Positions 1,986-24,287 of a DNA stretch of 27,280 bases are shown here, in pieces. The notes below the pieces were generated by a model. It was given only the letters and a program-made list of their open reading frames with translations. It was not told the DNA's origin and did no database searches. A program made the translations under genes and the position numbers. The stretch covers positions 1 through 27,280 of IMG/VR virus record IMGVR_UViG_3300030035_000142; one strand, written 5' to 3'. Position 1 is the stretch's first letter, and each line of letters starts with the position of its first letter. The DNA comes from a virus.

Positions 1986-4130
1986 TTAAGCTGGTCCGTA
2001 GGGGTAGAAGGTGCCTCCGAAGACGGGTATCTGGATCATGCCCAGCGCGTACTGCGTCACCTGGTCGTCTTCGATGTCGGCTATCAGAAAGGAATAGTCG
2101 AAGTTGACACCCGGTTTTTCTTGGGCAAGCATGATAGGATAAACGGTCCCCGGTATGCCAGATACGTCCGCGCCCGTCAGTTTGGCGTCCTGGTCGAAGT
2201 GGACGTTGAGCCATACTTCCCCGCTGGTTTGGGGGATAGTCACCCACGAGGAACCGGAACCGCCCCCCTGCGGATATTTGCCGAGCAGCGAGCCGTTCAG
2301 ATAGAGCGCGCCGGGCTTCATCTGCGCCCCGGTGATGGCTCCCTCCGTATCTTTCTGCAAGCGCACCTGAAAGCCGTATTCCGGCGCGGGCGTGGATTCT
2401 CCCGTGGATTTGGTGATGTGCTGGCTGATGGTGGGGGATTCCGGCTTGGGGTCAAAGCCGTATTCCGTCGATTCCGGCGCCCCCTGCATGTTTTCCAGCG
2501 TGGAAGAAATGTTAGAAACGGAATTAATTTCATTGAGCGAAAGCAAATCTTCAACCCCAAGTTGATTTGGCGCGCCGTAGGACAGGGAAATCGCGTTGGT
2601 CTGCAGGTCGCGCGAAACGGTTTGAATCATGGTGTTGATGTTCTGCCACTCTGGGTTGCCTCCCAGCAGCGAGACGCGCCGGCCCATGTATTGCCGCGTC
2701 TGCGCTTCTCCCAGCGCGACAAAGGAAATAGAGCCGTCCCAGGGCAATTCCTGCATGGATTCCCATACCGTTTTGGCAATGTCCCCATAGGGCACTCCTT
2801 CCGACGGTTCCGGCGATTCCCCTTCTTCCGGGCCGTTGGAGGGCTGTTCCCCGTTGTAGATGCCGTCAATGGGGTAGCTCGCGTAGGGGCGGTCCATGGT
2901 GACCAGATCCACCGAGAATTCTTCCCAGAAGCAGGGCACGCCTTGCAGGGTCCCCACATTCTTGAATTTCTCCCTCCACTTGGCCGGGGCGCTTTCCGGG
3001 ATGGCAAGACGCTGCTTGACGGTGGCGTTGCACCATTGCGGGCGGATGGATTTGGTATGAATTTGCCCGTCCGTCAGTTCATAGCCTGTGGCGGCGGTGT
3101 TGTAGCCTCGCGGCTTGTCTTCCTCCGTTCCGTCCCAGGGCTTCCCGGTGATGGTCGGATCCTGGTCATAGACGGCGATTGCTCCTACATCTTTCATCCA
3201 CGGGAAATGATGTTTCCAGAAACTGTTGATCATGTCGTTCTGGTCAATCCTGGTCCCCGTCACTTTCATGCGCTGGTAAGACAGGCTGCCGGCCCTGGTG
3301 CCCTGCACCGGCTGCGGATCTTCTACCGGCTCCCCCGTAGAACTGTATTTGGAGTAGTAGAAGTCTACTGACGTTCGGTAAACAATGGAGTGCGGCAAGG
3401 TCGGGTCCCCGTCTTCCGGGTATTTGGACAGGTAGGAGACGCGGTAGCCGTTGCTGCCGGTGGTTTCCGCGACGATAGCCACGCAGGGCGGTACGAGGTC
3501 GCCCCGGGGGACCAGGGAAACATCCATAGACTTGACCGTCGCCGTCGGCTGCAAGGGAAGCGCGATGGGCGTCAGGGCGTCATAGTCCGTGATGATGAGC
3601 TTGGGGCGCGCGCCGCTGTAGTCGTAGTAGGAAACCATGCGGGGCGACCAGCGGCGGATGGATTGAAGGAGGCTGCTCAGCGTATCGCAGGAGGCGTTCC
3701 ACGGAATCAGCATCTTGTCGTCGCTGATACGCAGCTCGTAGTCCGCCGGGTGGTGTTTGGCGAGGTTCAGCACCCGGGAGAGTGCGGAGGCAATGCTTAT
3801 CTTGGGAATGATGCCGCCCCCTCCGCTGACTTTATTCCACATGGAAAAGACCGGCTTCCATTCGGAATCCAGCGCAAAGCAGTTGTCCAGCCAATACCAG
3901 GGATCGGAAAAGACGATTTTCCACGCACGGGAAGAGCCGCTGTAGGTCTTTTCGATGCTGGAAACGAGGCCGGAAAGAATGGTGTTCCCGTTTTGGGAGA
4001 TGGAGACAGTATCGAACTGTTGGAAGGGTAAGACCTCCCCCAGCGTTCGCACGGGATAAACCGCGGTGATGGCGGAGGAGGAAAAGCTTTGCTGGTCGTG
4101 GGTCAGGCTCGACGGCTTGAGGCCCAGCAA
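1986..4130 (-). CDS. Large distal tail protein (714 aa from TTG; possible AGG start at 4157)
   Basis: Long ORF directly downstream of the tape-measure region, with no recognisable enzymatic motif. The function call rests on position and size. The first canonical start is TTG 4130. The frame is open back to TAA 4181-4179 with an in-frame AGG at 4157-4155. Confidence 0.55.
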   Translation of the reverse strand: MLGLKPSSLTHDQQSFSSSAITAVYPVRTLGEVLPFQQFDTVSISQNGNTILSGLVSSIEKTYSGSSRAWKIVFSDPWYWLDNCFALDSEWKPVFSMWNKVSGGGGIIPKISIASALSRVLNLAKHHPADYELRISDDKMLIPWNASCDTLSSLLQSIRRWSPRMVSYYDYSGARPKLIITDYDALTPIALPLQPTATVKSMDVSLVPRGDLVPPCVAIVAETTGSNGYRVSYLSKYPEDGDPTLPHSIVYRTSVDFYYSKYSSTGEPVEDPQPVQGTRAGSLSYQRMKVTGTRIDQNDMINSFWKHHFPWMKDVGAIAVYDQDPTITGKPWDGTEEDKPRGYNTAATGYELTDGQIHTKSIRPQWCNATVKQRLAIPESAPAKWREKFKNVGTLQGVPCFWEEFSVDLVTMDRPYASYPIDGIYNGEQPSNGPEEGESPEPSEGVPYGDIAKTVWESMQELPWDGSISFVALGEAQTRQYMGRRVSLLGGNPEWQNINTMIQTVSRDLQTNAISLSYGAPNQLGVEDLLSLNEINSVSNISSTLENMQGAPESTEYGFDPKPESPTISQHITKSTGESTPAPEYGFQVRLQKDTEGAITGAQMKPGALYLNGSLLGKYPQGGGSGSSWVTIPQTSGEVWLNVHFDQDAKLTGADVSGIPGTVYPIMLAQEKPGVNFDYSFLIADIEDDQVTQYALGMIQIPVFGGTFYPYGPA

Positions 4131-4235
4131 GTCATTGATGGTGATGTCGTGGTTCCTGCTGCTTGTAAAATGGTTATGTTATGGCTTGATGTTACCGTAT
4201 CTTGCCTGGTTCGGCAATGCGTTTACCTGTCCTAG

Positions 4236-4643
4236 TTATTTATTTTTGCTTAATAGGACATAAAACGTATACCACATAATTCCACCAATTACCCCCCCGA
4301 CGATATAGCCTATTCCAGCCATAGATAAGCCTGATATAAAACTTGCTATTCCCATAATTGCTCCACCACCAACTGACAATGTTGCTAAGAATACGAGGAC
4401 TGTGGCAAGAGCAGAATGACTTTCTTTGCAAGTTGGAACCTTATTAGGGGAATGCATGATCCCACTATTTTCCCTCAATAATGAAGAAGAAAATAACAAT
4501 TCCGAAGCCTTGACCCATTTTTTTGTACCTTCTGCGCAAATTAACGTGTCGGGAGAAATTATGTTTCTCTCGACTAACCTTCTTAACTCGGTAAGAACAA
4601 TAGGTCCCTTCACAACATTTCCGGAAAAATAGTGATACCGCAT
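4236..4643 (-). CDS. GYF_2 (DUF4339)-like domain protein with a C-terminal transmembrane segment
   Basis: The N-terminus YHYFSGNVVKGPIVLTELRRLVERNIISPDTLICAEGTKKWVKASEL matches the GYF_2 pattern. The C-terminus is hydrophobic and Gly-rich (LATVLVFLATLSVGGGAIMGIASFISGLSMAGIGYIVGGVIGGIMWYTF). The gene lies in an AT-rich island. Confidence 0.6.
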   Translation of the reverse strand: MRYHYFSGNVVKGPIVLTELRRLVERNIISPDTLICAEGTKKWVKASELLFSSSLLRENSGIMHSPNKVPTCKESHSALATVLVFLATLSVGGGAIMGIASFISGLSMAGIGYIVGGVIGGIMWYTFYVLLSKNK

Positions 4644-4676
4644 AAATTTGGGAATTTACAATATCCTCATTTTTTT

Positions 4677-6524
4677 TCAATGCTTTCTTCTTCTTAAGCC
4701 CTCTATATTGTTTTTAGCTTGTTCTAAGTCTTTTTTCATTTGATCCAAACCGTTTTTTAGATTTTTTAGTTCTCCTGATTGAATGTTAATCAGTAATAGA
4801 GCTTCTTTCATGTTTCCGGAAAGTCCGTTCAATATAGATTGATTAGTAATGCCCTGTTGTCTTAAGGCGTCTCTAAACGCTATTCCAATTTGTTCATATT
4901 CTCGAGAATCTATTACTCCATCGGAAGCGGCTTTCTTCACCTGTCCACGTATAGCTTCAGATGCAGCTCTAACAAGTGCCTTTTGTTGGTCAGTGGCAGA
5001 TTTTCCAGCCTCCACTATAAACCTATCTACAGCCTCTGAAAAATACTCATTATTCTTTTTAAGTTCCTCTGTTTTCTTATCTATATCTTTTTTTCGCCCC
5101 TTAATTTCATTCTCGGCATCTTCTCTTTGTCTTTCTTCTCTAATGGATTTTCTCTCTTGCGCTTGAGCGGTCCTCCCTCGTTGTTCATCAACTGCCGCTT
5201 CCGATTCATTTTTCTTTTTTATATTAGAAAAGTTTCTCGTTGCCTTTTCTTCTTCATTTATAGCTTCTATTAGAGATTTTTCCGCCTCTTCATATTCTTT
5301 TTCAAGAGTTTCTATAGTTTTTGCATAAGATGCATAGGCATTACTATATCCACCTTCGCCAGAAGTTCCATTACCTAAAGAGAATCCGCTATCTTCAAGG
5401 GCAATATCACTCTTCTCTATGGCTTCTTCTGTGTTAAATATTTTATCTCTTCTATCTTCTGCGTTGATATAACCATATTTATCAAGCAAGGATGAAATTC
5501 TTCTATCAGATATATTTTTACCGCCAACAAATTGAGATACTGCATCATAAATATTTTTATCGCTAACTTGTTTATACCTAATAGCCCCTAAATTTACTTC
5601 TTTATCCCTTAAAGATATTAAATAATCGTATAAGTCATTTCTCAATGAATTAGTCTGTTCTTCTACAGAAACTTCTGCAGCTCGTCTCTCTTCCAGGGTC
5701 ATTATATCATCATTAATAGATGCGTTTTGCAAGGCGGCCTTAGCTTCTCTTTGTCTTCGTGCTGCATCTATTCTTTTATTTACTGCATCCGATACATCCA
5801 AACTTGCTGATTCTTCTATTTCTCCTCTTCTCCTTGCACGACTATCTAATTCAATTCCTTCCAACAAACGTGCTTTTCTTCGTTCTGCATCTGATCCTTC
5901 TCCTAATAGTCCATTTGCAAAATCTTCTTCTACCTTTAATCGGGCAATTTCTGCTTCATCGTCTTTGATTCCTGATTCTAAAGAAATCAATTCTTTACGA
6001 TAATCCAGAGAATATTTTAAGGCTTCTGATTCCAGCTTTCGATAATCAGCTATTTTCTTTGCACTATCTAAAGCTTCTCTTAAAATTTGCTCGTTTTGAT
6101 TTTGCCGCCATGTCTCTTCAACCTCTGCTTTTAATTTTCTAAATGCTTCTGCTTCCTCTTCAATCGCCTTAGCAAGCTCTTTGGATTTCGCTTCCGTGTT
6201 CCCCATCCAATCGTAAAGCTTCGCCCCGGCCAGAACGGCAAGCGACATCGCGCCGGCCAGACCTGCGCCGCCTCCGAAGCCCATCACCAGCCCCGGAATA
6301 TTGTTCATGATGCCCCGGATGCCGTACTGCAAGTCATCGAAGAAGTAGGCAGCCTGCAAGGCCCCCTGCCCCATGTTCTTCACGCTCCGGGTTGCCTGCT
6401 GGCTGTCTTTATCCAGCTGCTCCGTAGACTTGTTCAGGGAGTCAATTTTCTGTTTCGCTTCTTCCACGCCTTTTCCGTCCAGCGTGGACTTGAGCTTGAT
6501 TTCGATTTCTTTCTTGGTGGCCAT
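4677..6524 (-). CDS. Tape measure protein (compositionally chimeric)
   Basis: 615 aa. Gly-rich hydrophobic segment (GLVMGFGGGAGLAGAMSLAVLAGA) followed by a long K/E-rich coiled coil. It sits directly after a small chaperone-like ORF. The first ~110 codons are GC-rich and the rest is AT-rich. Confidence 0.7.
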   Translation of the reverse strand: MATKKEIEIKLKSTLDGKGVEEAKQKIDSLNKSTEQLDKDSQQATRSVKNMGQGALQAAYFFDDLQYGIRGIMNNIPGLVMGFGGGAGLAGAMSLAVLAGAKLYDWMGNTEAKSKELAKAIEEEAEAFRKLKAEVEETWRQNQNEQILREALDSAKKIADYRKLESEALKYSLDYRKELISLESGIKDDEAEIARLKVEEDFANGLLGEGSDAERRKARLLEGIELDSRARRRGEIEESASLDVSDAVNKRIDAARRQREAKAALQNASINDDIMTLEERRAAEVSVEEQTNSLRNDLYDYLISLRDKEVNLGAIRYKQVSDKNIYDAVSQFVGGKNISDRRISSLLDKYGYINAEDRRDKIFNTEEAIEKSDIALEDSGFSLGNGTSGEGGYSNAYASYAKTIETLEKEYEEAEKSLIEAINEEEKATRNFSNIKKKNESEAAVDEQRGRTAQAQERKSIREERQREDAENEIKGRKKDIDKKTEELKKNNEYFSEAVDRFIVEAGKSATDQQKALVRAASEAIRGQVKKAASDGVIDSREYEQIGIAFRDALRQQGITNQSILNGLSGNMKEALLLINIQSGELKNLKNGLDQMKKDLEQAKNNIEGLRRRKH

Positions 6525-6545
6525 GGTGGTCTGGATGGTAGGGTG

Positions 6546-6827
6546 TTATCGTTGAGCGCGGACTTCTTCGATGATGAAAGCGGGCAAATTCCCGGACGTG
6601 AGCGCCGTCCGGGATTCTTCCACGCGTTTCTGCAAGGATTCCAGAATCATCATATCGCGGATGATGATTCCGAAGGCATGGGAGGGATCGACGCCGGCAT
6701 CTTGGGAGGCAGTAAAGACGCTTTCCTTCAATTCCTGCACCGCCTGGTTCAGGTTCGGGTTCTTGCCGCACTCTTCGGCCAATTCGACGAAAAGCCGTTC
6801 TATTCCGTTTTGTTGTTGTTCGTTCAT
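6546..6827 (-). CDS. Small acidic protein, tail assembly chaperone-like by position
   Basis: 93-aa ORF with an ATG start, immediately upstream of the tape measure gene. The call is positional only. Confidence 0.4.
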   Translation of the reverse strand: MNEQQQNGIERLFVELAEECGKNPNLNQAVQELKESVFTASQDAGVDPSHAFGIIIRDMMILESLQKRVEESRTALTSGNLPAFIIEEVRAQR

Positions 6828-6841
6828 GATGGATTATGCTG

Positions 6842-8356
6842 TTAAGATGGGTATTCGGTGGAAGTGTAGCGGATGACGAGGGATAATCCGAACGTACGTC
6901 CGGGCGCCGTGGCTGCGGCGGGATAGGACTCGTCTCCGAGACCGTCAAATGACTGGGGGCTTTCCAGCATGGCATGCTGCTCATAGATGCCGTTCTGGTT
7001 TTCCACGACCAGCTGCCAGTCCGAGCGGATTTCCACGCCGGGAGAAAACGTCCATTTCACGTTTCCGCCCTCTCCGGTGGAAACCGCCTCGCTGCTGGTC
7101 GCTAGAAGAGAGGCAGACCCGTTTTCCACCCGGTAAAGCGTTAACGTGCCGGAATTGGAGCTGGTGGGGTTCGTCGTGATGATTTCCTGCAGCGTCAGTC
7201 CCTTTCCTTCGGGGTTGCCTTCCGGGAAGTCCGGATAAACGTCCGAGGGAATAAACCTCCATGAGGAATAACTCATCGGATTATCCGAGTATTCCCCTCC
7301 GGGCGGGGGAAGCTGATGATTTCGGGTGACCAGTCCTGCCCTCAATACGCGGATTGTCTGTTTTAAACCGGAATCCGCCTGTGTCGCGGAAACGACGACG
7401 GAGCCGGCCCCTCCTTCATTGGGCGCCGCGGTTAACGTGAAGGACCCGTTATTTCCGTTCGTGATATCGGAGATGACAACGGAAGAGCTGGGAGAATTGG
7501 GCGTCCAGTCAACGCTGACTGCCCCCGGGTCATAATAGGAAGTCACCTGGACCTGGTAGCTTCCGCCAGTAACGGGAACCTGTACCTGGGTTGGAGAAAG
7601 GCTGAATGAGAAAGTAGGAAGCGGCTGACGAAATTCAACCTCAACAGCCTGCCCGGTTCCGTCCTGAATGACCTGGAGCGACATGGTCCTGTCCTCGTCT
7701 CCTTCATTGGCGGAGACTGCCACCTTGAATGATCCGTTGTTCCCGTTGACCACATCGGAGACGGTCAACCCTTCGGAGACTTCGGCTATCTGCCACCCCT
7801 GCCCGACCGGACCCGGGGTAAACGAAGATTCCACGTTCACGGTATATTCACCCCCCTGGACGGGCACGTCAAAAGAAGCGGGTGTCACGGCAAAAACCCA
7901 GTTGGAATTGTCTGGTGTCCTGTCGGTGACGGTCATGGTCAGCGTGACCAGCAGGCACAGATAGCCGTCCTCTGGAGACGGAGGCGGGACGAAGTTTTCG
8001 GTTTCAAACTGGTAGCCGGTGATGACGGCGGCAAACCGCCATTGCGGCTGTTCGGCGAACTGCAGGTAGAGATAGCCGTTCTGGTTGCTGGCCAGCCACA
8101 GAGCCAGATTCTCCTGATAGGCAGCCATATCCTGAAAATCGACGAACCAGCGGTAAAACGCGATGGTGCGCTGCTCCACGGCACTCCCAAGCCCCTGCGC
8201 GAACGCCCTGGGGCCGTCCACCAGCGACGTTTCGAATGCCTCCATGGAACCGCCGAAGCGGGGCGGCTCCGGCGTATCGTCCCAGAGGTTGAGCAGCTGG
8301 ATCTGGTTGCCGGCGGCGGAAACGTAGCGGGCTGCGTAGGGGGCCTGGTAGGTCAT
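6842..8356 (-). CDS. Tail-associated protein with two tandem BACON/Ig-like beta-sandwich repeats
   Basis: 504 aa with an ATG start 6 nt after the amidase stop. Two ~90-aa repeats share the pattern ...P..v.VP..GG.Y.V.V.S...PG.....W........v.SD..NGNNGSF............ It occupies the slot usually held by the major tail protein (upstream of chaperone + TMP). Confidence 0.6.
   Translation of the reverse strand: MTYQAPYAARYVSAAGNQIQLLNLWDDTPEPPRFGGSMEAFETSLVDGPRAFAQGLGSAVEQRTIAFYRWFVDFQDMAAYQENLALWLASNQNGYLYLQFAEQPQWRFAAVITGYQFETENFVPPPSPEDGYLCLLVTLTMTVTDRTPDNSNWVFAVTPASFDVPVQGGEYTVNVESSFTPGPVGQGWQIAEVSEGLTVSDVVNGNNGSFKVAVSANEGDEDRTMSLQVIQDGTGQAVEVEFRQPLPTFSFSLSPTQVQVPVTGGSYQVQVTSYYDPGAVSVDWTPNSPSSSVVISDITNGNNGSFTLTAAPNEGGAGSVVVSATQADSGLKQTIRVLRAGLVTRNHQLPPPGGEYSDNPMSYSSWRFIPSDVYPDFPEGNPEGKGLTLQEIITTNPTSSNSGTLTLYRVENGSASLLATSSEAVSTGEGGNVKWTFSPGVEIRSDWQLVVENQNGIYEQHAMLESPQSFDGLGDESYPAAATAPGRTFGLSLVIRYTSTEYPS
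7340..7897 (-). repeat. Tandem duplicated Ig/BACON-like domain coding repeat (2 x ~90 codons)
   Basis: Repeat 1 runs FAVTPASFDVPVQGGEYTVNVESS...VVNGNNGSFKVAVSANEGDEDRTMSLQV. Repeat 2 runs FSLSPTQVQVPVTGGSYQVQVTSY...ITNGNNGSFTLTAAPNEGGAGSVVVSAT. Confidence 0.6.
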
Positions 8357-8362
8357 GGGCGG

Positions 8363-8893: not shown

Positions 8894-8954
8894 GAATATT
8901 CTCCTTTAATGGTTGGTTGTTAATATGATTGAACTGGTAAGAAAAACTTTACTG

Positions 8955-10366: not shown

Positions 10367-10370
10367 GGTG

Positions 10371-10661: not shown

Positions 10662-10662
10662 A

Positions 10663-11067
10663 TTATTTAATAGTGAAATGCTTGAAAAACGCCACCGCGG
10701 CGGGGGCGGTAATGACGAACTCCGGGTAGTCGCGGTCCGTAAAAATCCTGCGCCCGCCCTGTGGATTGACGGCTTCCACGGCCAGATACACCGCCTCCAC
10801 TCCCACAATGGGGTCATCCTCATTGACAGGATCCGGGTAATACCAATCCTGTGTTGCCCACACCTGGACGGCCTGCCAATCCTCACCCAATCCCACCAGC
10901 GCGGCCACTACGGCGGCCATGGCCGGGGTCTGGTTCGCCGGAATCTCGTCCTGCGTATAGCGGTCTATGCGGGTGTACCCTTCCTCGTCCTGGTAAATGG
11001 CCGCCAGGCCGAATTCATCCCATTGACCGGGTTTCGGGAACTGTATTTGTATCTCGGAATTATTCAT
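10663..11067 (-). CDS. Hypothetical acidic protein downstream of the fibre gene (fibre-assembly candidate by position only)
   Basis: 134-aa ORF. Its ATG overlaps the fibre stop (ATGA). No motif recognised. Confidence 0.45.
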
Positions 11068-13004
11068 GATTCTATCGGCACGTTAATATCTTCAAAAGCG
11101 GCGGTTGCCTCGGATTCAACGGCATTCGTTCCTATTGCGTTCAACCCGTAAAAGAGGGGGTTCACATTGCCCGGCTGGTAGTAGGCATATTCTCCGGGCC
11201 CCGCATAAACGGAAGCCGTGCCGCTGGTGGTGTTGATCACATCCGTCACCCACCTGGAAATGCCGACGCCGGTCTCAAAATTGGAGACGCCCCGGCAGGT
11301 GGCGATCTTGAACAGGTTGTTGGTCTGTGCCCCCGTGACCAGCAGCCAGAGGCCTCCCAGGTTTTCATAAACGCTGCTGTTGGCAACCGTCTGCTGCTGG
11401 TAAATAATCTTGCACACCGTCCACGGGACGGGCTCGTTTTGCGTCGCCGGGATAAAGCTGGTCGTCGTCTTGACCTGCCATCCATCGGCGGACGTCAGCG
11501 CATAAATTTCACGCACGCGCACCGTATAGCCGTTGCGCGCCGTATCGCGCACGTTGTCAAAGGTGATGTCCAGAATCTCCCCGGAATTAAATGCCAGGTC
11601 ATTGCCCGGAATAATCGTGTAGGAGTCGGTGGTAAGGTCTGTCCTGATTGTTTTCGCCCCCCGTCCGATGCCCATCGTTATCTTCGCCGCGGCCGTGGCC
11701 CGCCAGACAAATGAAAAGCCGGCCCAGGAAGAATAATTCCATTGGGAACTGGGGCCTTCAAAAGGGGCCTGAATAGTCGTGTGAGCGCCCGCGGAAATTC
11801 CTATGCGGGCCATCTGGTAGGGAACCGTTTTAGTCACCGTTGCCGTGCCGGTAGTTGTCAGCGTGTCCGTATTCAGGAAAGCCGCCGCCGTATAAGCATT
11901 GGCTGCGCCTCCCATGCCCGCGGCATACAGGCGGTTGACGCCGGATTCATTGGTCGGCGCTCCCACGGCCAGCGGGATGTTGACGCCTCCATTGGCGTTG
12001 ATGGCGCTTGAAAACGTGGATGTCCCCGCGCAGTTGAAGCTGGCGCCCTGGCTGATATTCAGGATTCCGGTCTCTACCATGAATGTCCCTCTCAGCCATC
12101 CGCCCGACCGAAGATCGACCGACTGGTAAAACCGGGTGATCCCGTAAATCTGGTTCAGCGTGCCGGCGCTTCCGCTGCCGTCCGGGTTGTTGACCACCAG
12201 AGGCCCGTTCACGGTAGCTGATTCGGCTGTCAGGGCTCCCCCGATATTCACATCGCCAACGTTGGATGTCAGAGTACCAGGATCTCCCTTTTCCCCTTGC
12301 GGCCCCTGGGGGCCTGCCGGACCTTCCGGCCCCTGGGGGCCCTCCGGGCCTTGAGGCCCCGCCGGTCCTGTATCTCCCTTCGGTCCCTGCTCCCCGGTTT
12401 CGCCCTGCGGCCCGCGTTCCCCGGTTTCGCCGCGTGGACCTTGCGGCCCTTCGGGTCCGGTTTCACCCCGTTCACCCTGCGGGCCTGACGGTCCCTGAGG
12501 ACCAACATCCCCGCGGGGAATCGTGAAATTGAGCAGATAGGATCCTGATTCAGTTCCCTTGACGGCTTCCGCGTTGGCGGGCGTCCCCGGTTCCCCGGTG
12601 GTGACCTGACCCACGGACAGATTAAAATTCTCGGCGTACTTTTTGGCCTGCTCCGCGTACCAGGCGGCGCTGGACGCGTTATCAAGCATGATTTGCACGC
12701 AGCCGCTTCCTTCCGGCAGCTGCACGACGACCGCGCCCGCCACGGCCTGCTGTTCGTCCGGCAAGTCCGGCGTCACCCGGCCCGAAGAAACAAAGCATCC
12801 GTAAAGGAACGGGCTTTCCTCGTTTCCGTCGTCCATGAAGACGTCATAGGACCACATGCCCGCAGGCACCGAAGCCCAGGAAATTACGCCATTGCCCTCG
12901 TCATCGCGTGAAAAGCCGAACTCCGTCACGCCCGTCTTGAGACGGACAGCGCCGCGCAGGGTGACGCCGCTCATATCGACGGGATCGCCCTGAAAATCCA
13001 CCAC
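11064..13004 (-). CDS. Collagen-like repeat tail fibre protein (646 aa from GTG; possible AGG start at 13070)
   Basis: About 26 uninterrupted G-X-Y triplets ([76 protein letters not shown]), flanked by a beta-rich N-domain and a ~400-aa C-terminal domain. Confidence 0.8.
12276..12512 (-). repeat. Collagen triple-helix (G-X-Y)n coding repeat
   Basis: Read directly from the translation of residues ~165-243 of the fibre ORF. Confidence 0.9.
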
Positions 13005-13072
13005 GCGGACGACCAGGGACTGGTTCAGCCCTGTGACGGTCCGGATATCGTATTTACCTGCCTGCTGCCTGG

Positions 13073-13106
13073 AAAAAAAGAGGATGCGGGGGAGCAGCGC
13101 TCCCCC
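13073..13106 (-). terminator. GC hairpin plus T7 run between the tube and fibre genes (weak intrinsic terminator or attenuator)
   Basis: Minus-strand GGGGGAGC-GCT-GCTCCCCC (8-bp perfect stem), then GCATCCTC and TTTTTTT. The 8-nt spacer between the stem and the U-run is atypical. Confidence 0.3.
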
Positions 13107-13118
13107 TGGTGAAACACG

Positions 13119-13730
13119 TCAGGAACCCGGCACCGGCGTCACGTCCTGCACATTGGAAGGCGTGAAATTGTAGTCGCCGCGGTAATCCATTTCGAACTCG
13201 AACTGGGGTGAAGCGATCGCCGTGGTGTGTTCGGGGTCCTGCAGGAGGCGCAAATCTCCGTGCGCCACGCCCGTCAAGTACACCGTCCCCACGTCGTTCT
13301 GATACCAGAAACGGATATGTCCGGAAATTTTATTATCCCCGCCATGGCCGACGGTGGTCGATTCCTCGCCGTTGGCGGGAGCCGCCCCCAGGGCAAACGC
13401 CAGCTGGAAGTATTCGGGCGACATATCCGGCGTGGTGAAAGTCATCCGCTTGCCGGTCGTCGTGTTCTTGCGCTGCTGCCGGTAGCCAAGATTGCCTCCG
13501 TAAAAGCGCGTCACTTCCCCCTCGACCTGCGTGGCAACGGACTGGAACGCGCCCAGCAGCCCGAAACTCACCCAAGGCGCTTCGGGCCCGGCTGTCGGAT
13601 CGGCCGGAGGATTGGCGGGAGGTTCGGGATATTGGCCGGGGCCGGTAACGTAAGAGGCTCCCTCGTCCTCGGTCACCTTGATGCCGTCGGGGAGGAAAAT
13701 AGCCAGAACGCCGGTAATCTGCGGCGTCAC
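13119..13730 (-). CDS. Putative major tail (tube) protein (203 aa from GTG; possible AGG start at 13769)
   Basis: The function call rests on size and position after the head-completion genes. The frame is open back to the upstream gene's TAA. AGG GCT ACT at 13769 would give MATTYDPIFTNRNV... Confidence 0.45.
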   Translation of the reverse strand: MTPQITGVLAIFLPDGIKVTEDEGASYVTGPGQYPEPPANPPADPTAGPEAPWVSFGLLGAFQSVATQVEGEVTRFYGGNLGYRQQRKNTTTGKRMTFTTPDMSPEYFQLAFALGAAPANGEESTTVGHGGDNKISGHIRFWYQNDVGTVYLTGVAHGDLRLLQDPEHTTAIASPQFEFEMDYRGDYNFTPSNVQDVTPVPGS

Positions 13731-13784
13731 GTTGCGGTTGGTAAAGATAGGATCGTATGTAGTAGCCCTGATGCTTGAAAAAAG

Positions 13785-13982
13785 TTAGTAGATAATGGCT
13801 GCCTTGCCGTCGGCTTCCAGTTTGTCGGCGAGTTCTTTCGTAACACGGATTTCCGCCCCTTTCAAGAACGTTGAACGCCCTATGTGGGTTTTCCTGGCAA
13901 GAAAACGGATTTTCGTGTTAATGACGGCGGCCTGCTCCGTCTTTTTGTCCGGTTCGGTATTGGCGGCAGTTGCTTTGCTCAT
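13785..13982 (-). CDS. Small hypothetical protein (65 aa)
   Basis: ATG start overlapping the upstream stop (ATGA). Lys/Ala-rich. Confidence 0.45.
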   Translation of the reverse strand: MSKATAANTEPDKKTEQAAVINTKIRFLARKTHIGRSTFLKGAEIRVTKELADKLEADGKAAIIY

Positions 13983-16542: not shown

Positions 16543-17015
16543 CGGTAGGTGCTTCGCATCGGGTTGAACCAGGGCCGGCGCGTGTAGCGCGGCATCATGT
16601 AGGCGGGGTCCGCGGGAGCGGATCCGTCCACGCTTTCGGGCAGCATGTCGCCCCGGGCATAGAGAGCCAGCATCGCGTCCGCCGATTCGGCGGCCTTCTG
16701 GCGCGTCTCGGTCAGGTTGAGCTGGTAGCGCAGGTAGAGCTGCCGGATAATCAGCGGCCATGCCAGGGACCGCATGCTTTGCGGAATGTCGTACATGCCG
16801 CTGTTTTGTAGGGATTGCCGCAGGGCGAGGTTGTTGGCCAGCGCCCCGCGGATGGTCATGCAGACATCGTTGACCGCCTCCATCATGACGTCCCGGTAGT
16901 CCAGGCTGCGCTGTTCCCCGGCGGTCACCAGGGCGTCGCGTTCGGCGGTGTTGAGGCCGAGCAGACGATCAGCTTCATCGGTGGAAATCGTGGACCACGC
17001 GGGAAAGGCGGACAT
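16539..17015 (-). CDS. Head-tail connector / adaptor-type protein (158 aa)
   Basis: ATG start 21 nt after the capsid gene's stop. Position is equivalent to Mu gp36/DUF1320-like adaptors. That resemblance is from memory only. Confidence 0.45.
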   Translation of the reverse strand: MSAFPAWSTISTDEADRLLGLNTAERDALVTAGEQRSLDYRDVMMEAVNDVCMTIRGALANNLALRQSLQNSGMYDIPQSMRSLAWPLIIRQLYLRYQLNLTETRQKAAESADAMLALYARGDMLPESVDGSAPADPAYMMPRYTRRPWFNPMRSTYR

Positions 17016-17036
17016 GATGGAGGCGGACGTTGGGGG

Positions 17037-17777
17037 TTAATCGGCGGAGGCCGTCGCGTCGATGCGGACGATGGCGCCGGGGTTGGTCAGCTTGGTCAGC
17101 GAGTAGACGCGGTTGGTGACGAGCGTCAAGGCCAGCGTCGGCTTGTATTCGGTGATGACTTCGCGGCGAAGCTGGCCGGAAAGACCGAAGGTTTTGACGG
17201 CGGAGGCGTCGAACTGCGTCGGGGAATCTTCCTTGTACAGGACATAGACTTCGTTTTCCATGATGGTTTTCGCGTCGCCGGAAGCGTCGCGGTACGGCAT
17301 GGAGGCGATGTAAATATCCCGGATGGGCCGGATCAGAGCCATGCGAAGCAGGTCTTCGTTGAACAGGCCGACGCTGTTGAAGGAAACCACCTGGCGCGCG
17401 AGCGTGTTGGAGCGAAGCAGCTGCCACGCGTTGATGCCGAAGACAATCGTGTTCGGCATGTGTCCGGTTGCGGCGTTGATGGACAGGATCGCCTGGTCCA
17501 GATCCGCCAACGGGTTTTTCTGCTGGTTGGCCCAGTCACCCATCCCGGAAGCGGCCGGAAGCTGGCTCATCAGAAGCTTGGCGCGTTCGTATTCGTACGA
17601 CGTCACAAACTGGGATTCGATGAGTTTGTATTCCGCCAGGGTGATGGCCTGCGCCTTTTCCCGGTTGACGCCCAGCAAGGCGTCAGGGATGGGCAGCGTC
17701 AAGCCGTAGCCCTGAAGGGTGTCGGTTTCGTTTCTTCCGCGCAGGACGGTCTGGCGGGGAGGTTCGCCCGGTCCCAC
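17037..17777 (-). CDS. Major capsid protein, lambda gpE-like (coordinates from the first canonical GTG; true N-terminus probably at AGG 17963)
   Basis: PLADLDQAILSINAATGHMPNTIVFGINAWQLLRSN parallels lambda gpE PTDDIEAYALNASGVVNIIVFDPKGWALFRSF. At 246 aa it is too short for this family. The frame is open for 72 more codons upstream, and these read like capsid N-terminus. Confidence 0.75.
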   Translation of the reverse strand: MGPGEPPRQTVLRGRNETDTLQGYGLTLPIPDALLGVNREKAQAITLAEYKLIESQFVTSYEYERAKLLMSQLPAASGMGDWANQQKNPLADLDQAILSINAATGHMPNTIVFGINAWQLLRSNTLARQVVSFNSVGLFNEDLLRMALIRPIRDIYIASMPYRDASGDAKTIMENEVYVLYKEDSPTQFDASAVKTFGLSGQLRREVITEYKPTLALTLVTNRVYSLTKLTNPGAIVRIDATASAD

Positions 17778-17997
17778 CTGGATGGGCTGGACGGTGAAGG
17801 CCGATTCCGTGTCCCAGACCTTGTACTGGAAATTCAGGTCATAGACCGGGACGATCGGAGCGATGCGGCTGATGATGGAGTTCTCTTCTGTGTTCCCGGA
17901 CCCCGCGGAATAGGAGGTCAGGACATCGGTGAACTGAACGGCGGAGCAAAATGGAGTAGCCCTTGTTCTTGGTCTTTCTGTTGGTTGGGGTTAATAG

Positions 17998-18429
17998 TTA
18001 GGCTGCGGCGACCTGGTAGGACGGGACGAAGCCGATTTCCACAAGGCCCTGTTCCCACTGGGCATGAATAACTCGGGCATAGACGGTGTCGCCGCTGACG
18101 GCGGCCTTCCATGTCCCGTTGGCCGTGATGGTGACGGGCGTTCCGGCGTTGATGGTTCCGGGCGTCTCGGATAGAGCCGCCTTGATCAGGCCGGCATACA
18201 TGCCGACGAGCGCGGCGACGCAGGTCCCCTTGTTGGGCTGTCCCTGCAGGACGACGCCGAGCAGCTGCGTCTGCGTAGGAATGGCGGACAATGGAGTCCC
18301 AACAAATTCGGGGATGTCAGGATTGGCGGTCAGCGCCACGACGGTTCCTTCCTGTCCGCACAGGTCAACGCCTTCCGGGGCGTTGAAATAGACGATGGCG
18401 CTTTTCTGTGTTACGTTGATTGATGGCAT
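17998..18429 (-). CDS. Head decoration / DUF2190-like protein
   Basis: 143 aa with an ATG start, beta-rich, located between the protease/scaffold and a gpE-like capsid gene, as in lambda D/E-type modules. The family call is from memory. Confidence 0.5.
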   Translation of the reverse strand: MPSINVTQKSAIVYFNAPEGVDLCGQEGTVVALTANPDIPEFVGTPLSAIPTQTQLLGVVLQGQPNKGTCVAALVGMYAGLIKAALSETPGTINAGTPVTITANGTWKAAVSGDTVYARVIHAQWEQGLVEIGFVPSYQVAAA

Positions 18430-18447
18430 TGGTTGATATAGGTTAAA

Positions 18448-19569
18448 TTATCGGTTGGCGGAGACGATGAAGCCTTCTTCGGTCGCTTTCTGGTAGGCGT
18501 CATAGCGCTTCATGCCGTCCTTGATCAGTTCGTTCACACGGTTGTTGAATCCTTCAATGGATTCCTTCTTGCGGAACGGATCAGGGGGATTCAGCGTCAC
18601 GCGGCGGTTCAGAGGCGTCCTTTGCGGAAGCTTCTTCTGCTCCGGCTGCTCCTGTTTCTGTGGGGCCGCCTGGCGGTTGAGCGCACGGATAAAGGCGTTC
18701 AGCGCGGCGGGGCTTTCCCGGAGAGAGTTTTTCAGCTCTTCCCGGCGTTCTTCCGTAAATTCCTCGCGTTCTTCCTCGTCCAGCGCGTTTTCGTACGTGC
18801 TGACGGCGTCGTCCACTTCGGCGTTCACGTGGTCTTTCTCGCGCTTTTCCAGCGAGAGCAGTTCATCAAGTCGTCCGAGGATCGCCCTGCTCATATCGTC
18901 GGTGCCGTCAAATTCGACATCCAGCTTGTCAAGCAGGGAATCGAACAGGGCCCGCTGGGCCTTGTCCATTTCCTTGGACGGATATTCTCTATCGTCGTTG
19001 TCCATATTGGTGTTCTGGGTTATTTCCCCCTCTTCGCGGGGCTTTTGTGGTTTGGTGTCGCCCCCGGCCTCGTCGGAGGCGGGGGAAGTCTGTCGGTTGA
19101 CCAGCGGCCGCTTTCCCTTGATGCGGGGTCGGTTGGTCAGGGCAAAGCCGGTCAGGCGCGACGGTCGGTAAACGCCGTCCGTAAAGGTCATGCCTTCGCC
19201 GTATTCCGTAGAAGATTGCGTATATTCTTTGTCCTCGAGCATCTTCAGGCCGCGGGGAGTCCATTCAATGAAGCCGTAGAGTTCCAGCGTACCGGAAGGG
19301 TCTCGGTAGGTGTCCAGCCTCTTGAGCCATCCGAGAGCCCGCGTATCGCGGGAAAGGTCGTGGCTCAGGTGGTCGCCGTCGATGAGCATGCCCGGCCCGT
19401 CAAAGGTGCGGGCGTTGAAGTCGTCCACCATGTCCCGGATCGCCTGCTCGTCGATGCGCAGCACGGCGGGTCCTTCACCGTAGTCGACGTCATGGTCTCC
19501 GCTTTTCTCGATGTGATACCAGCCGTTGGCGGGTCGGGACAGGTCATTGATTTGTTTCGTACTGATCAT
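18448..19569 (-). CDS. Mu gpI-like prohead protease / scaffold fusion
   Basis: The N-domain GDHLSHDLSRDTRALGWLKRLD...LELYGFIEWTPRGLKMLEDKEYTQSSTEY...RLTGFALTNRPRIKG matches the Mu-like prophage I protein pattern. The C-terminal half is an acidic coiled coil (scaffold-like). Confidence 0.7.
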   Translation of the reverse strand: MISTKQINDLSRPANGWYHIEKSGDHDVDYGEGPAVLRIDEQAIRDMVDDFNARTFDGPGMLIDGDHLSHDLSRDTRALGWLKRLDTYRDPSGTLELYGFIEWTPRGLKMLEDKEYTQSSTEYGEGMTFTDGVYRPSRLTGFALTNRPRIKGKRPLVNRQTSPASDEAGGDTKPQKPREEGEITQNTNMDNDDREYPSKEMDKAQRALFDSLLDKLDVEFDGTDDMSRAILGRLDELLSLEKREKDHVNAEVDDAVSTYENALDEEEREEFTEERREELKNSLRESPAALNAFIRALNRQAAPQKQEQPEQKKLPQRTPLNRRVTLNPPDPFRKKESIEGFNNRVNELIKDGMKRYDAYQKATEEGFIVSANR

Positions 19570-20680
19570 CGGTAAATCCTTTCATGAGTCCGGCGTAAAT
19601 CATTTGCTGAAGCTGCTCGTAGGCGTCGGGCGGAATGAGGGAGGCTCCCGACTCCCTGTTGACTGCCGCCGCCGTCGGCACAGGCTCCCTCGTGTCCTCG
19701 ATCGACATGCCGATCTTTTCTTCGATTTCGGTTTTCTCCGGACGGACGCCTCCGTCCGCAAGGGCGGCGATTTCCTCGGCCTTCTGCAATGGCGTCTGGA
19801 CGGTGTCAAAGGTGATGTGGAGGCGGGCCAGCGGTTCGCCGTCTCCCAATATAAGCGGGCTGATGGCGGTGTTGAACGCTTCCGCCACTTTGGAGCAGAC
19901 GGCGGATACCACCGCATTCCAGCTGTCCGTATGGGCGGACCCGGCCAGCGTGCCTGATCCTGATTCGTTCAGGACCGTCAGGGTTCCGGCCATCACAAAA
20001 CGCACCTGGTCCTTGTCGGCCATGTTGATGCGCGAGAGAAAATAGTTTTCGTTGATGTTGGACGCCTTGAGCGGTTCCGCCTTGCAGTCAGGAGGCAGCA
20101 CGATAGAGGCGCCTGATTTAAGCTGTTCGCAGGCCCGTTCCAGCGCGTCCATGACGGCGGGACTCGCGTCCTTGGGGGCGGTGATGATGACCGGGGCGCT
20201 TCCGTAGCGGTCCATGTGGTTGTCCCACGTGATTTTTGCGTGGTTGCGCTCAAAAGAAGCGCGGGCAGCCGGGAACAGGATGGGATACTGGTGTTCCATC
20301 ACGACGAGCGTTTCGTCTTCCACGCTTTCCCCGGTGTCGACGCCGATATAGCACTGTGGGTTGAACTGCCACTCGTTCAACACTCCCGGCCTCACCCAAT
20401 AGCGCTGTGGGATGAATTCAAAGCGGCGGCCCCAGGCGTCCTCAATGTATTGGAGGTGGGCGTAACCGTAGAACATGGCGGAGGCCAGCTGCCCAAAGGC
20501 CTGTTGAAGTCCGGTGACGGAGTGATAGAATTCTTCCAGCGCGTTCTGCTGACGCTGGGCTTCCGGGCTGTCGTCCGCGGCGTCAATCTTCCAGCCCTGC
20601 ATGGAGACGCTTTCAATGAGGCGGGAGTAGAGCATTCCCAGCAGCCCGTCCGAGTAGATGACCTCGTCCCAGATGAGCAT
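19544..20680 (-). CDS. Portal protein, Mu gp29 / DUF935-like (coordinates from the first ATG; true N-terminus probably at AGG 20908)
   Basis: 378 aa from the ATG is short for this family. The conserved block ...ADLQTLIDARNEARRGAFARQ|MLIWDEVIYSDGLLGMLYSRL spans the ATG. The frame is open upstream to within the tRNA gene and has no ATG/GTG/TTG. Confidence 0.8.
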   Translation of the reverse strand: MLIWDEVIYSDGLLGMLYSRLIESVSMQGWKIDAADDSPEAQRQQNALEEFYHSVTGLQQAFGQLASAMFYGYAHLQYIEDAWGRRFEFIPQRYWVRPGVLNEWQFNPQCYIGVDTGESVEDETLVVMEHQYPILFPAARASFERNHAKITWDNHMDRYGSAPVIITAPKDASPAVMDALERACEQLKSGASIVLPPDCKAEPLKASNINENYFLSRINMADKDQVRFVMAGTLTVLNESGSGTLAGSAHTDSWNAVVSAVCSKVAEAFNTAISPLILGDGEPLARLHITFDTVQTPLQKAEEIAALADGGVRPEKTEIEEKIGMSIEDTREPVPTAAAVNRESGASLIPPDAYEQLQQMIYAGLMKGFTDDQYETNQ

Positions 20681-20928
20681 TTGGCGGGCAAAGGCTCCCC
20701 GCCGCGCTTCGTTCCGGGCGTCAATCAGGGTTTGCAGGTCGGCTCCCTGTAACGGATCCCAATATTCGAACCATTGGGGCCTGCCTGGCTTGCGGCTTTG
20801 TTCCGTCAGGGCTCGCCGGGTGAGATCCGTTTCAAGTTCCTTGATTCTGGTCTCCTGTTGGGCGACCAGCTTCGGGGCGTTGAGGATATTTCTTAATGCG
20901 TTAAACCTGCGGCGAAAGAAAAAAATGG

Positions 20929-21002
20929 TGGTTGCAGGGGGGGGAATTGGACCCCCTACTCGGGCACAGGAAACCCGCGTGATAACGTTTCACCACCCTG
21001 CG
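20929..21002 (-). tRNA. tRNA, anticodon CCU (AGG-reading), with an initiator-like acceptor stem and a non-canonical D/T loop
   Basis: Manual cloverleaf: CGCAGGG UG GUGA-AACGUUA-UCAC G CGGGU-UUCCUGU-GCCCG AGUA GGGGG-UCCAAUU-CCCCC CCCUGCA A CCA. All stems pair (one U.G), U33 is present, position 37 is a purine and CCA is encoded. Position 1:72 is a C x A mismatch. Confidence 0.6.
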
Positions 21003-21018
21003 ATTGTTTACATATCGT

Positions 21019-21047
21019 CATATATTGATATATTGATATATTGTCAA
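21019..21047 (-). promoter_or_regulatory. Near-consensus sigma70-type promoter directly upstream of the tRNA
   Basis: The minus strand reads TTGACA (21047-21042), a 17-nt spacer, then TATATG (21024-21019), about 17 nt before tRNA position 1. It starts 2 nt after the terL stop codon. Confidence 0.4.
21021..21044. repeat. 3 x 8-nt tandem repeat TATATTGA / TATATTGA / TATATTGT
   Basis: Read directly from the + strand. It fills the spacer and -10 region of the putative tRNA promoter. Confidence 0.85.
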
Positions 21048-21049
21048 CC

Positions 21050-22357
21050 CTAATATCTCCCGTAAGCGCGTTTTGATGACACGGGCCGGGCGTACCAGGC
21101 TCCCAGCGTCCGGGCCAGTCCGCTGTGCCGGCGCGCGTGCCAGGCCATGACGAGGGCGTCGGCGCGGTCGGGAGAACGGACGCCCCGTTTCGCCATGTCT
21201 TCCTTGCTTTCGATTTTGACGCGGCCGATCGCGTCGGTTTGGAGCCGGGGCGCTACCAGCTGCTCAATCGTGTCCTCGTCAATGTCGAGGATGAGTTCCT
21301 TTTCTTCGATGGCTCGGGCCAGGGCCCGCCACGCCTGGGCGCGGAGGTTGACAAAGGCCTGCGTATCGTCTGCCGGGAAACCGCCCCGGTAGGAGTGCAC
21401 CGGGAAGCCCTCGGCGCGGAAGTCGTCAATGATGGGTAGTCCAAGGCCGTCTCCGTCCGCGTAAATGCGGTCGGCGGGGATGCCGAGTTCGGACGCCCTG
21501 CGGCGGAACCGTCCGCGCGCTCCTACGGTGTCCGGGTCCGACCAGTGGTCGGCGATGAAGAATCGGTTGCCCTGCCCGGCCGCGAAGACGTTTTCGTCGC
21601 CTCCGGCCGCGAAGTCGAAGCCGCCGCAGGTCTCCCCGGTGTCCAGAAAGGGAGGCGGGTTGTTGACCAGATCCATGAGGGCGCGCCGGGGAATGACGGA
21701 CTGACCGTCGAGGTCCGTGAATTCGCCGAGGATGGCGGAGCGGTAGAAGGAGGACTGCTCGCCGTATTCTTTTTTCAGGCGCTCGGCCTTGCCCGGGTCA
21801 TTGATCTCAATGTGGGGGCAATCCTCGTATTTGACGCGGATCTTGTAGTAGAGGGATGAATTTTTGTGGAAGCAGTCGTAGAAGGTGCCGGAATCGGCCC
21901 CAGGTGACGAGGTAATGAACGCGTGGAAGAGCGTGCAGCGGGAAACGGCGGTGAAGATGGAGTCCGGGATGGTTTTAGCCTCGTCGAGGACGTAAAAGAC
22001 GGGGTCCACGTCGGGCGAGATTTTCGGGTGCCATCCTTCCGCGCGGCCGGCGTTGTCGGTCGAGAAGCCCACGGCAAAGCCTCCCTCCGGCGTGCGAATC
22101 TCGGTTTTGTTGAATGTCCAGCCGTCAAAGAAAGGGTTGTCCATGTAGCGGCGGAGCGCGGGAAAGAGCTGCTTTTCCACCTGCATCCACGACGACGACG
22201 TAACCGGCACCTGACCCCGCGGGAAGCAGGTAAGGAAGTACAGGATGGCCGGAGCGATGCAGTTGCTCGTCTTGCCGGATCCGTTGGGAGCAACCAGAGC
22301 CACGCTTTTCCCTCCCAGGGTCAGCTTGCCGAGGGACAACGCCTTGATGGCTTCCAC
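21050..22357 (-). CDS. terL: Terminase large subunit (coordinates from the first canonical GTG; true N-terminus probably at AGG 22423)
   Basis: Walker A VAPNGSGKT, Walker B-like FYVLDEAK and a C-terminal nuclease-type acidic motif (SPDRADALVMA). The typical TerL N-terminal block FFLRHVLRLDPYPWQ lies upstream of the GTG. Confidence 0.9.
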   Translation of the reverse strand: MEAIKALSLGKLTLGGKSVALVAPNGSGKTSNCIAPAILYFLTCFPRGQVPVTSSSWMQVEKQLFPALRRYMDNPFFDGWTFNKTEIRTPEGGFAVGFSTDNAGRAEGWHPKISPDVDPVFYVLDEAKTIPDSIFTAVSRCTLFHAFITSSPGADSGTFYDCFHKNSSLYYKIRVKYEDCPHIEINDPGKAERLKKEYGEQSSFYRSAILGEFTDLDGQSVIPRRALMDLVNNPPPFLDTGETCGGFDFAAGGDENVFAAGQGNRFFIADHWSDPDTVGARGRFRRRASELGIPADRIYADGDGLGLPIIDDFRAEGFPVHSYRGGFPADDTQAFVNLRAQAWRALARAIEEKELILDIDEDTIEQLVAPRLQTDAIGRVKIESKEDMAKRGVRSPDRADALVMAWHARRHSGLARTLGAWYARPVSSKRAYGRY

Positions 22358-22429
22358 CTGCCAGGGATAGGGATCCAGGCGGAGGACATGGCGGAGGAAG
22401 AAGCTGACGGGGAGGCGTGTCCTGGTCTG

Positions 22430-23745: not shown

Positions 23746-23760
23746 ACACAAACCAAACAC

Positions 23761-24069: not shown

Positions 24070-24083
24070 TCGGAAGCTCAAAT

Positions 24084-24284: not shown

Positions 24285-24287
24285 ACC

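Follow-up and report, generated by a model that had tools for sequence, protein, structure and literature searches.

AGG as the likely start codon of six late genes in an Akkermansia phage that encodes an initiator-type tRNA(CCU)

How are late phage genes translated when their reading frames offer no canonical start codon at the place where the protein should begin? The question is raised by IMG/VR record IMGVR_UViG_3300030035_000142, a stretch of 27,280 nucleotides (nt) that was analysed at its full length and is here called the window. It belongs to a temperate phage or prophage of Akkermansia muciniphila; Akkermansia phage DTMo-2021a (CP084202.1) is 90% identical to it across 91% of its length, and the complete A. 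muciniphila chromosome CP048438.1 carries the same prophage (locus L158, CP048438.1 68639-89475). We propose, with a probability of about 0.8, that in six genes of its late operon AGG serves as the initiation codon and that this codon is read by the phage's own initiator-type tRNA with anticodon CCU. Four kinds of observation bear on this reading directly: the anatomy of the genes, conservation at the level of the codon, the interchange of ATG and AGG at the same site, and the co-occurrence of the tRNA with AGG starts. The evidence is comparative throughout and draws on approximately 46 related IMG/VR contigs that were collected by the tRNA pattern and by portal homology.

Results

Candidate start sites

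A stop-to-stop analysis of the minus strand showed that exactly six late genes have long open leaders lacking ATG, GTG and TTG. This bears out the original prediction that six late genes have no canonical start at their real N-terminus and carry an in-frame AGG instead. In the remaining late genes a canonical codon lies almost directly at the preceding stop, a few bases away at most and often overlapping it. The six genes, as they would be if AGG were the start, and their leaders are as follows (lengths in amino acids, aa; for each leader, the distance in brackets is that from its opening to the first canonical codon).

terL: 21050..22423, minus strand, 457 aa, AGG at 22423-22421, 6 nt past the terS stop, phrog_2 match; leader open from 22429, first canonical codon GTG at 22357 (72 nt)
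portal: 19544..20908, minus strand, 454 aa, AGG at 20908-20906, 20 nt past the tRNA, Portal_Mu match; leader open from 20989, first canonical codon ATG at 20680 (309 nt)
major head (capsid) protein: 17037..17963, minus strand, 308 aa, AGG at 17963-17961, phrog_1005 match; leader open from 17990, first canonical codon GTG at 17777 (213 nt)
"tube" protein: 13119..13769, minus strand, 216 aa, AGG at 13769-13767, without a Pfam or PHROGs family match; leader open from 13784, first canonical codon GTG at 13730 (54 nt)
collagen-like tail fibre: 11064..13070, minus strand, 668 aa, AGG at 13070-13068, Collagen repeats and tail-fibre PHROGs; leader open from 13118, first canonical codon GTG at 13004 (114 nt)
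tail protein: 1986..4157, minus strand, 723 aa, AGG at 4157-4155, without a Pfam or PHROGs family match; leader open from 4178, first canonical codon TTG at 4130 (48 nt)

Started at AGG, the six open reading frames contain no internal stops, and the gaps before them, predicted to shrink to 6-78 nt, were recomputed as 6 (terL), 20 (portal, counted from the tRNA), 34 (capsid), 15 (tube), 48 (fibre) and 78 nt (tail). The Pfam and PHROGs searches upheld the names previously given to terL, portal, major head protein and fibre, and those of the tube and tail proteins found no such backing; likewise, the "714-aa tail gene" stands as a gene with its AGG, its length from that codon being 723 aa. The PHROG profiles are in register with the AGG N-termini, capsid residue 13 aligning to position 14 of phrog_1005. 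AGG GCT ACT opens both capsid and tube, and a second in-frame AGG lies in the portal leader at 20782, as had been described. However, AGG is not the sole codon common to the six leaders, as had been claimed; ACC, a common Thr codon, is shared as well. When leaders of equal length were drawn 20,000 times from the codons of the phage, some shared codon turned up in 80% of the draws and a shared AGG in 0. A ribosome-binding site or motif common to the six AGG sites was not found beyond pyrimidine- or T-rich tracts; the tube and tail sites share TTTT(N)CAAGCA(T/G)C AGG. The AGG genes tend to follow a real intergenic gap, often heading translationally coupled blocks.

Homologous starts

Contigs L026-L028 represent a relative that is more AT-rich than the window and matches it in gene order; the tRNA is missing there, and terL and portal are only 94 nt apart. 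When every L026 protein was mapped onto the window, residue 1 fell exactly on the window ATG for genes with canonical starts and exactly on the window AGG for portal, capsid, tube and fibre; for terL it was two codons off. Specifically, the L026 portal begins at TTG (LIKTLKNLF, against X-FNALRNIL in the window), its tube at ATG (MATTLSPDYANRNV, against (AGG)ATTYDPIFTNRNV) and its fibre at ATG (MSTPALYNIKTLTGL). For the capsid, a protein search with the AGG-started sequence returned the full-length homologues P0001 (MPNNFCTAVQFTDVL), which originates from L026-L028, and P0006 (MANLFYSAVQFTDVL), both of which place Met on the AGG of the window's (AGG)ATPFCSAVQFTDVL; at the nucleotide level, ATG stands at the AGG codon both in L026-L028 and in the tRNA-bearing contig L029. 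The terL start of L026 is an ATG two codons upstream of the AGG, and that of L029 an ATG one codon downstream. In the Akkermansia phages Chambord and Chantilly the tail gene starts, with ATG (MKTIDVSSADFL) and with a GTG that overlaps the preceding stop respectively, at most 1 residue from the AGG, which is itself conserved in DTMo-2021a; with few relatives and 27% identity, the tail site is the weakest of the six. The homologues thus have ATG, TTG or GTG where the window has AGG, and the earlier worry that the fibre and tail cases might be chance is resolved, both being backed by homologues.

The tRNA-bearing contig L029 is mixed: terL and capsid start with ATG there, whereas portal, tube and fibre keep AGG. 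It is, by this comparison, an evolutionary intermediate in which ATG and AGG interchange at the same site. Across the tRNA-bearing loci AGG is kept at the portal in 46/46, at terL and capsid in approximately 44/46, at the tube in 12/12 and at the fibre in 10/10, with variation in the bases next to it, and the only alternative seen in such contigs is the ATG of L029. An ordinary arginine codon would be expected to drift to AGA or CGN, and in the control set of internal Arg codons from terL through capsid only 5 of 113 (4.4%) are codon-invariant across the clade, with none of the 8 internal AGGs among them. Judging from these alignments, the constraint at the start sites is on the codon and not on the amino acid.

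The sequence on either side of the AGG behaves differently. In the portal, indels lie upstream and synonymous-type changes downstream; in the fibre, synonymous changes start 4 codons past the AGG, and the first downstream GTG is absent in L001. Conservation at the protein level among the relatives sets in at the AGG and is missing ahead of it; the leader extensions from AGG are conserved as protein, in line with the original prediction. Coding is predicted to begin at the AGG because indels, frame changes and a hairpin are found upstream of it, as opposed to the synonymous-type changes downstream. The hairpin belongs to the fibre leader:

13073..13106, minus strand: conserved hairpin GGGGGAGCGCTGCTCCCCC, followed after 8 nt by T7 and ending 2 nt before the fibre AGG, with compensatory changes

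This hairpin is G+C-rich and sits between tube and fibre. A terminator scan did not call it, and the T-run does not begin until 8 nt past the stem, so it would be an atypical terminator or an attenuator placed directly before the fibre AGG. It marks the upstream part of the fibre leader as RNA structure, not coding sequence.

The tRNA

Between terL and portal lies the only tRNA of the window, preceded by an AT-rich element:

20929..21002, minus strand: initiator-type tRNA, anticodon CCU (reads AGG), CGCAGGGTGGTGAAACGTTATCACGCGGGTTTCCTGTGCCCGAGTAGGGGGTCCAATTCCCCCCCCTGCAACCA, CCA encoded, detected by ARAGORN and by Rfam (47.4 bits)
21003..21047, minus strand: AT-rich element with TTGACA, 17 nt and TATATG, plus three tandem TATATCAA-like repeats, conserved across the clade

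ARAGORN types this tRNA as tRNA-Arg with anticodon CCT, and the CCU anticodon is present in all 46 tRNA-carrying loci, among which 16 distinct variants were compared. Compensatory double changes occur at eight base pairs, and pairing is 100% in the helices of the D arm, anticodon arm and T arm, a pattern that indicates a cloverleaf under selection. The sole position of the cloverleaf that is never paired is 1:72, where all 16/16 variants have C1xA72, including the one in which both 4:69 and 7:66 have changed in a compensatory way. G2-C71 is found in 15/16 variants (with one G.U), and C3-G70 and A73 in 16/16. In the anticodon stem, the pairs 29:41/30:40/31:39 are GC/GC/GC in 12/16, au/GC/GC in 2 and GC/GC/ug in 2 (the window included), with G30-C40 invariant. 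Bacterial initiators are recognized by a 1:72 mismatch and by an unbroken run of three G-C pairs (29:41, 30:40 and 31:39), of which G30-C40 is essential, and natural initiators with au/GC/GC or GC/GC/gu are known as exceptions (PMC5389676). The tRNA of the window and its relatives agrees with this published description in everything except the anticodon, and its designation as initiator-like is borne out to that extent; the U31.G39 of the window is the reverse orientation of the G.U pairs in natural initiators (PMC5389676). The anticodon also sets it apart from the methionyl-tRNA synthetase (MetRS) identity set, as CCU replaces CAU (C34 A35 U36; PMC9976931, Table 1). By sequence, then, it is not tRNAfMet in the strict sense; it combines an initiator-type body with an anticodon that would read AGG.

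Within its family the window tRNA is an outlier, having U31.G39 for G31-C39 and the D loop AACGTTA where AACGGTA is usual (a G-to-T change). The U31.G39 state is common only to the window tRNA and the group of variants with A37. Going from G-C to U.G requires two substitutions, which suggests that pairing is still selected. A quadruplet pairing with C(-1):G37 (CAGG:CCUG) was also considered and dropped, no covariation being found: position -1 is always C before terL, portal, tube, fibre and tail and is A before the capsid, a C there is common before ATG genes as well, and the four loci with an A37 tRNA still have it.

The AT-rich element adjoins the tRNA, filling the space between it and the terL stop. 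A simple consensus promoter scan did not call it, its second hexamer ending in G; it might serve the tRNA and the portal block as a promoter or an operator.

Distribution

A generalised tRNA pattern, defined by the initiator acceptor stem, a GGG/CCC anticodon stem and an anticodon of the form C-notA-U, matched in IMG/VR only within the present clade of Akkermansia phages. In 185,579 species-representative genomes the same pattern gave 21 matches, none of which is a tRNA at the matched position. A search with the D arm alone for an ancestral CAU scaffold returned mostly unrelated tRNA-Gln, along with a second, unrelated phage family whose tRNA has a 1:72 mismatch and the anticodon CAU in contigs L120 and L123 (IMG/VR 3300034418_002638 and 3300007346_001846) and CCU in contig L115 (3300034375_000708, positions 609-680). 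The tRNA of these three contigs reads TGCGGGGTAGTGAAACGGTATCATGCTAGGCTC[A/C]TGCCCTGG…CCCCGCCAC, with U1xC72, G2-C71, C3-G70, A73, au/GC/GC and G37. L115 is 99.3% identical to the CAU contigs, with about 45 single-nucleotide differences over 4.7 kb and no ATG/AGG switch among them, and in all three contigs the genes beside the tRNA use a Shine-Dalgarno sequence and ATG. L115 was rejected as a second AGG regulon on these grounds; it may be a real one-step CAU-to-CCU mutant or an assembly error.

Full-text literature searches returned no natural non-CAU initiator tRNA and no AGG start codon in phages. To our knowledge, and as far as the searchable literature goes, a private start codon served in nature by an initiator tRNA of its own would be a new kind of system.

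Alternative explanations

The alternative that fares best holds that AGG is a weak near-cognate start for the host tRNAfMet (CAU) and that the phage tRNA(CCU) has nothing to do with initiation. AGG is a single substitution away from AUG, at position 2, and most genes of the phage lack a Shine-Dalgarno sequence, such that start selection may be relaxed. However, second-position mismatches are among the poorest near-cognates in bacteria, as measurements over all 64 codons in E. coli indicate, and initiation of this kind is implausible for a major capsid protein required in hundreds of copies. In addition, the AGG starts are confined to genomes that carry the tRNA (46 loci), the tRNA-less L026-L028 having ATG or TTG at these sites, and the near-cognate explanation would leave the complementary anticodon, the conserved C1xA72 and the run of three G-C pairs as an unexplained coincidence. 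We consider it unlikely.

A second alternative takes the tRNA for a normal elongator tRNA-Arg(CCU) that supplies a rare codon and the AGGs for internal or leader codons, with translation starting at the downstream GTG, TTG or ATG or at AUC, AUU or CUG. It would agree with the ARAGORN type, with the common reading of phage tRNAs as codon compensation and with the gene callers, which put the starts downstream; ATC, moreover, immediately precedes the AGG in the tube and in some portal variants. That ATC is not conserved, being ACC in tube variants and CGC, CTC or TGC in the portal. A codon-supply rationale fails as well: AGG is not enriched, with 39 of 6710 codons (5.8 per 1000, 10% of Arg; phage codons only) and none within capsid or tube, and with AGG this rare in phage genes, codon supply does not explain the tRNA. 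At the protein level the leaders are conserved, and they show homology to the Met-started N-termini of L026, P0001 and P0006; the AGGs are constrained as codons in a way that other Arg codons are not. The tRNA itself is a poor match for an elongator. A Watson-Crick 1:72 pair is needed for efficient EF-Tu binding, and the mismatch found here in every variant, kept while its neighbours covary, would impair that binding. Similarly, tRNAs that read ANN codons are expected to have A37, whereas position 37 is G in 15/16 variants. An elongator role for this tRNA, with all six starts elsewhere, is very unlikely.

Fusion of the six proteins to the upstream gene by stop-codon readthrough or recoding is suggested by three window genes that share a frame with the gene before them (terL, tube and fibre), and can nonetheless be given hardly any weight. 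Portal, capsid and the tail gene are out of frame with any upstream gene, and the L026 genes are separate and initiated at ATG. The terL spacer and codons 2-3 vary while the AGG stays, and in one variant the spacer measures 5 nt, which puts the AGG out of frame with the preceding stop; the tube spacer is 14 or 15 nt, and the 14-nt form breaks the frame in the same way, again with the AGG in place. The fibre leader holds the conserved hairpin and T-run. In the window itself, a single stop stands between the gene pairs that share a frame: terS/terL (TAA, 22430-22432), g65/tube (TAA, 13785-13787) and tube/fibre (TGA, 13119-13121); as relatives break the frame, the sharing looks coincidental.

Sequencing or assembly errors, or decay of a prophage that has lost its start codons, might be read from the truncated or inconsistent public annotations of these genes, but the same six AGGs are met again in over 46 independent metagenome assemblies as well as in the isolated phage CP084202.1 and the complete chromosome CP048438.1, such that resequencing would not bring back canonical starts, the reading frames are intact with a substitution pattern of purifying selection, and the tRNA shows compensatory evolution, so that this last explanation scarcely deserves consideration.

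Discussion

Weighing AGG initiation

AGG initiation through the operon's initiator-like tRNA(CCU), the core of the original prediction, drew support from every sequence-based check originally proposed for it. Several points nonetheless weigh against it. None of the six AGGs is preceded by a Shine-Dalgarno sequence, a lack they share with the majority of the phage's ATG genes, and the co-occurrence of tRNA and AGG starts amounts to essentially two clades and one intermediate, that is, to few independent evolutionary events. The D-stem pair A11:U24 is a feature of E. coli tRNAfMet, and here U11:A24 is found in 16/16 variants. Basic residues are reportedly poor substrates for the formylase, as described in work on Lys-charged initiators in E. 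coli. The combination of U31.G39 with the D-loop change may make the window tRNA weaker than the clade consensus. With respect to timing, the translational lock originally suggested, lifted once the tRNA is expressed, may exist, but the tRNA lies downstream of terL in the same operon, and terL itself would need a tRNA encoded downstream of it, which is a poor fit to a simple timing lock. Lastly, A20 in the D loop is the major determinant for bacterial arginyl-tRNA synthetase (ArgRS) (PMC9976931), and charging is uncertain because no clear A20 is present: the 7-nt D loop AACGNTA reads U20 and then A21 by analogy with the …GGUA of tRNAfMet.

Mechanism and purpose

From the features above we infer a mechanism, which extends to P-site use, to the identity and formylation of the amino acid and to any regulatory purpose. 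The tRNA would come from the late region, transcribed from the TTGACA-17-TATATG element in front of it or cut out of the operon transcript, and would then be aminoacylated, most likely with Arg. The bacterial ArgRS determinants include C35, U36, A73, G2-C71 and C3-G70, whereas MetRS needs A35 (PMC9976931); C35 and U36 are present in the tRNA (PMC9976931, Table 1). Arg is most likely because the determinants C35, U36, A73, G2-C71 and C3-G70 are those of ArgRS and MetRS would require A35, and it is probably the amino acid that this tRNA carries. C1xA72 together with G2-C71 and C3-G70 would favour handling as an initiator, making the tRNA a poor substrate for EF-Tu and possibly a substrate for the formylase. 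The G-C pairs centred on G30-C40 would allow acceptance in the P-site of the 30S subunit, where the tRNA would pair perfectly with AGG and translation would start. One substitution suffices for each ATG-to-AGG switch and for the change from CAU to CCU. It is likely that this amounts to a natural form of orthogonal initiation, in which AGG has been reassigned as a private start codon and the terminase, portal, capsid and tail proteins begin with Arg or formyl-Arg, being made only when the phage tRNA is present. A possible purpose is to insulate or gate de novo initiation of the virion and packaging genes. Because AGG genes often head coupled blocks, control of AGG initiation could propagate to the genes downstream.

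Relation to known systems

The closest functional counterparts are engineered. Anticodon mutants of the E. coli initiator, including the amber tRNAfMet(CUA), the i-tRNA(AAC) and the GAC and GAA variants from the Schulman and RajBhandary laboratories (bioRxiv 10.1101/2021.05.25.445580, 10.1101/2024.07.29.605542; PMC11744186), resemble the phage tRNA in that the 1:72 mismatch and the three G-C pairs are kept, the anticodon is changed and initiation takes place at the complementary non-AUG codon. These usually carry the amino acid set by the new anticodon and provide an initiation channel orthogonal to AUG; the tRNAs in PMC11744186 were chemically pre-charged and are uninformative on charging in vivo. 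In contrast to them, the phage tRNA is natural, has a body far from tRNAfMet (with a short D loop, a TCC T-loop and G37), reads a sense codon and would serve six essential genes of its own genome, its function being the inferred part. Compared with natural initiators, tRNA(CCU) shares with tRNAfMet and with the phage CAU tRNAs of L120 and L123 the 1:72 mismatch, G2-C71, C3-G70, A73 and G-C pairs centred on G30-C40. It differs from tRNAfMet in U11:A24 and in its anticodon, which excludes the usual MetRS recognition and the reading of AUG, GUG and UUG.

The recoding of stop codons by suppressor tRNAs in crAss-like, Lak and other phages (Borges et al., bioRxiv 10.1101/2021.08.26.457843) resembles the AGG system by functional analogy alone. 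In both cases a phage tRNA gives a new reading to a codon that is concentrated in late, structural or lytic genes, proper translation of those genes would need the phage's own tRNA, a gate has been proposed and gene callers are misled; however, suppressor recoding acts in elongation at in-frame TAG or TGA, whereas the AGG system would act at initiation, on one sense codon per gene. The six frames of the window contain no in-frame stops, and its sole tRNA has a sense anticodon. Near-cognate starts, such as the AUU of infC and the GTC of Streptomyces sigR (PMC5472188), are likewise missed by standard gene finders and may have regulatory uses. Unlike the AGG system, with its dedicated complementary tRNA and six highly expressed genes, they concern single genes, are inefficient and depend on the normal initiator under IF3 control.

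Implications

If initiation at AGG is confirmed, this would be the first natural genome known to us with its own start codon and a dedicated initiator tRNA, a combination so far built in the laboratory (amber, AAC), and a single anticodon substitution would be seen to bypass in nature the rule that bacterial initiation uses AUG, GUG or UUG. Initiation would join stop codons among the routes by which phages recode translation. Virion production could then be gated or insulated, from starts that are invisible to gene finders, and the proteins concerned might have unusual N-terminal processing or N-degron properties; for proteins started with Arg, the first residue, its formylation and deformylation and the N-degron fate would all become questions of interest, for which phage DTMo-2021a and A. 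muciniphila lysogens are to hand. A natural orthogonal pair of initiator tRNA and start codon could also be useful for synthetic biology and for the biocontainment of phages.

There are consequences for annotation as well. Public gene calls for terL, portal, capsid, tube and fibre in this widespread prophage family are systematically N-terminally truncated (P0002, P0012, P0017, P0020 and P0033; also in L158 and L029), at 246 or 278 aa for the capsid against 308 from the AGG, 397-421 against 454 for the portal, 435-444 against 457 for terL and 185-198 against 216 for the tube. For the fibre of L029, the call instead begins ahead of the AGG, at an ATG within the hairpin region. The calls are presumably truncated because gene finders do not allow AGG, and an AGG-start option is needed where such a tRNA occurs.

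Other features of the window

The remaining features of the window to which the analysis refers are these:

1-1188, plus strand: integrase
23242-22430, minus strand: terS (Pfam/PHROGs)
19569-18448, minus strand: Mu-like protease (Pfam/PHROGs)
minus strand: late operon of the window

Two segments stand out by composition. The gene for a 615-aa protein at 4677-6524 on the minus strand lies in a low-GC island (35-41%, against about 59% elsewhere; the 4000-6000 region is likewise low) and contains 25 AGA codons, most other late genes having 0-3; this profile suggests a tail module that is horizontally acquired or mosaic. Its N-terminus (MATKKEIEIKLKSTLDGKGVEEAK) is still conserved with L026. On the plus strand, between the early minus-strand genes and terS, a segment of approximately 44% GC at 23377-24300 holds three small open reading frames (122, 102 and 66 aa) and may be a moron or a regulatory cassette.

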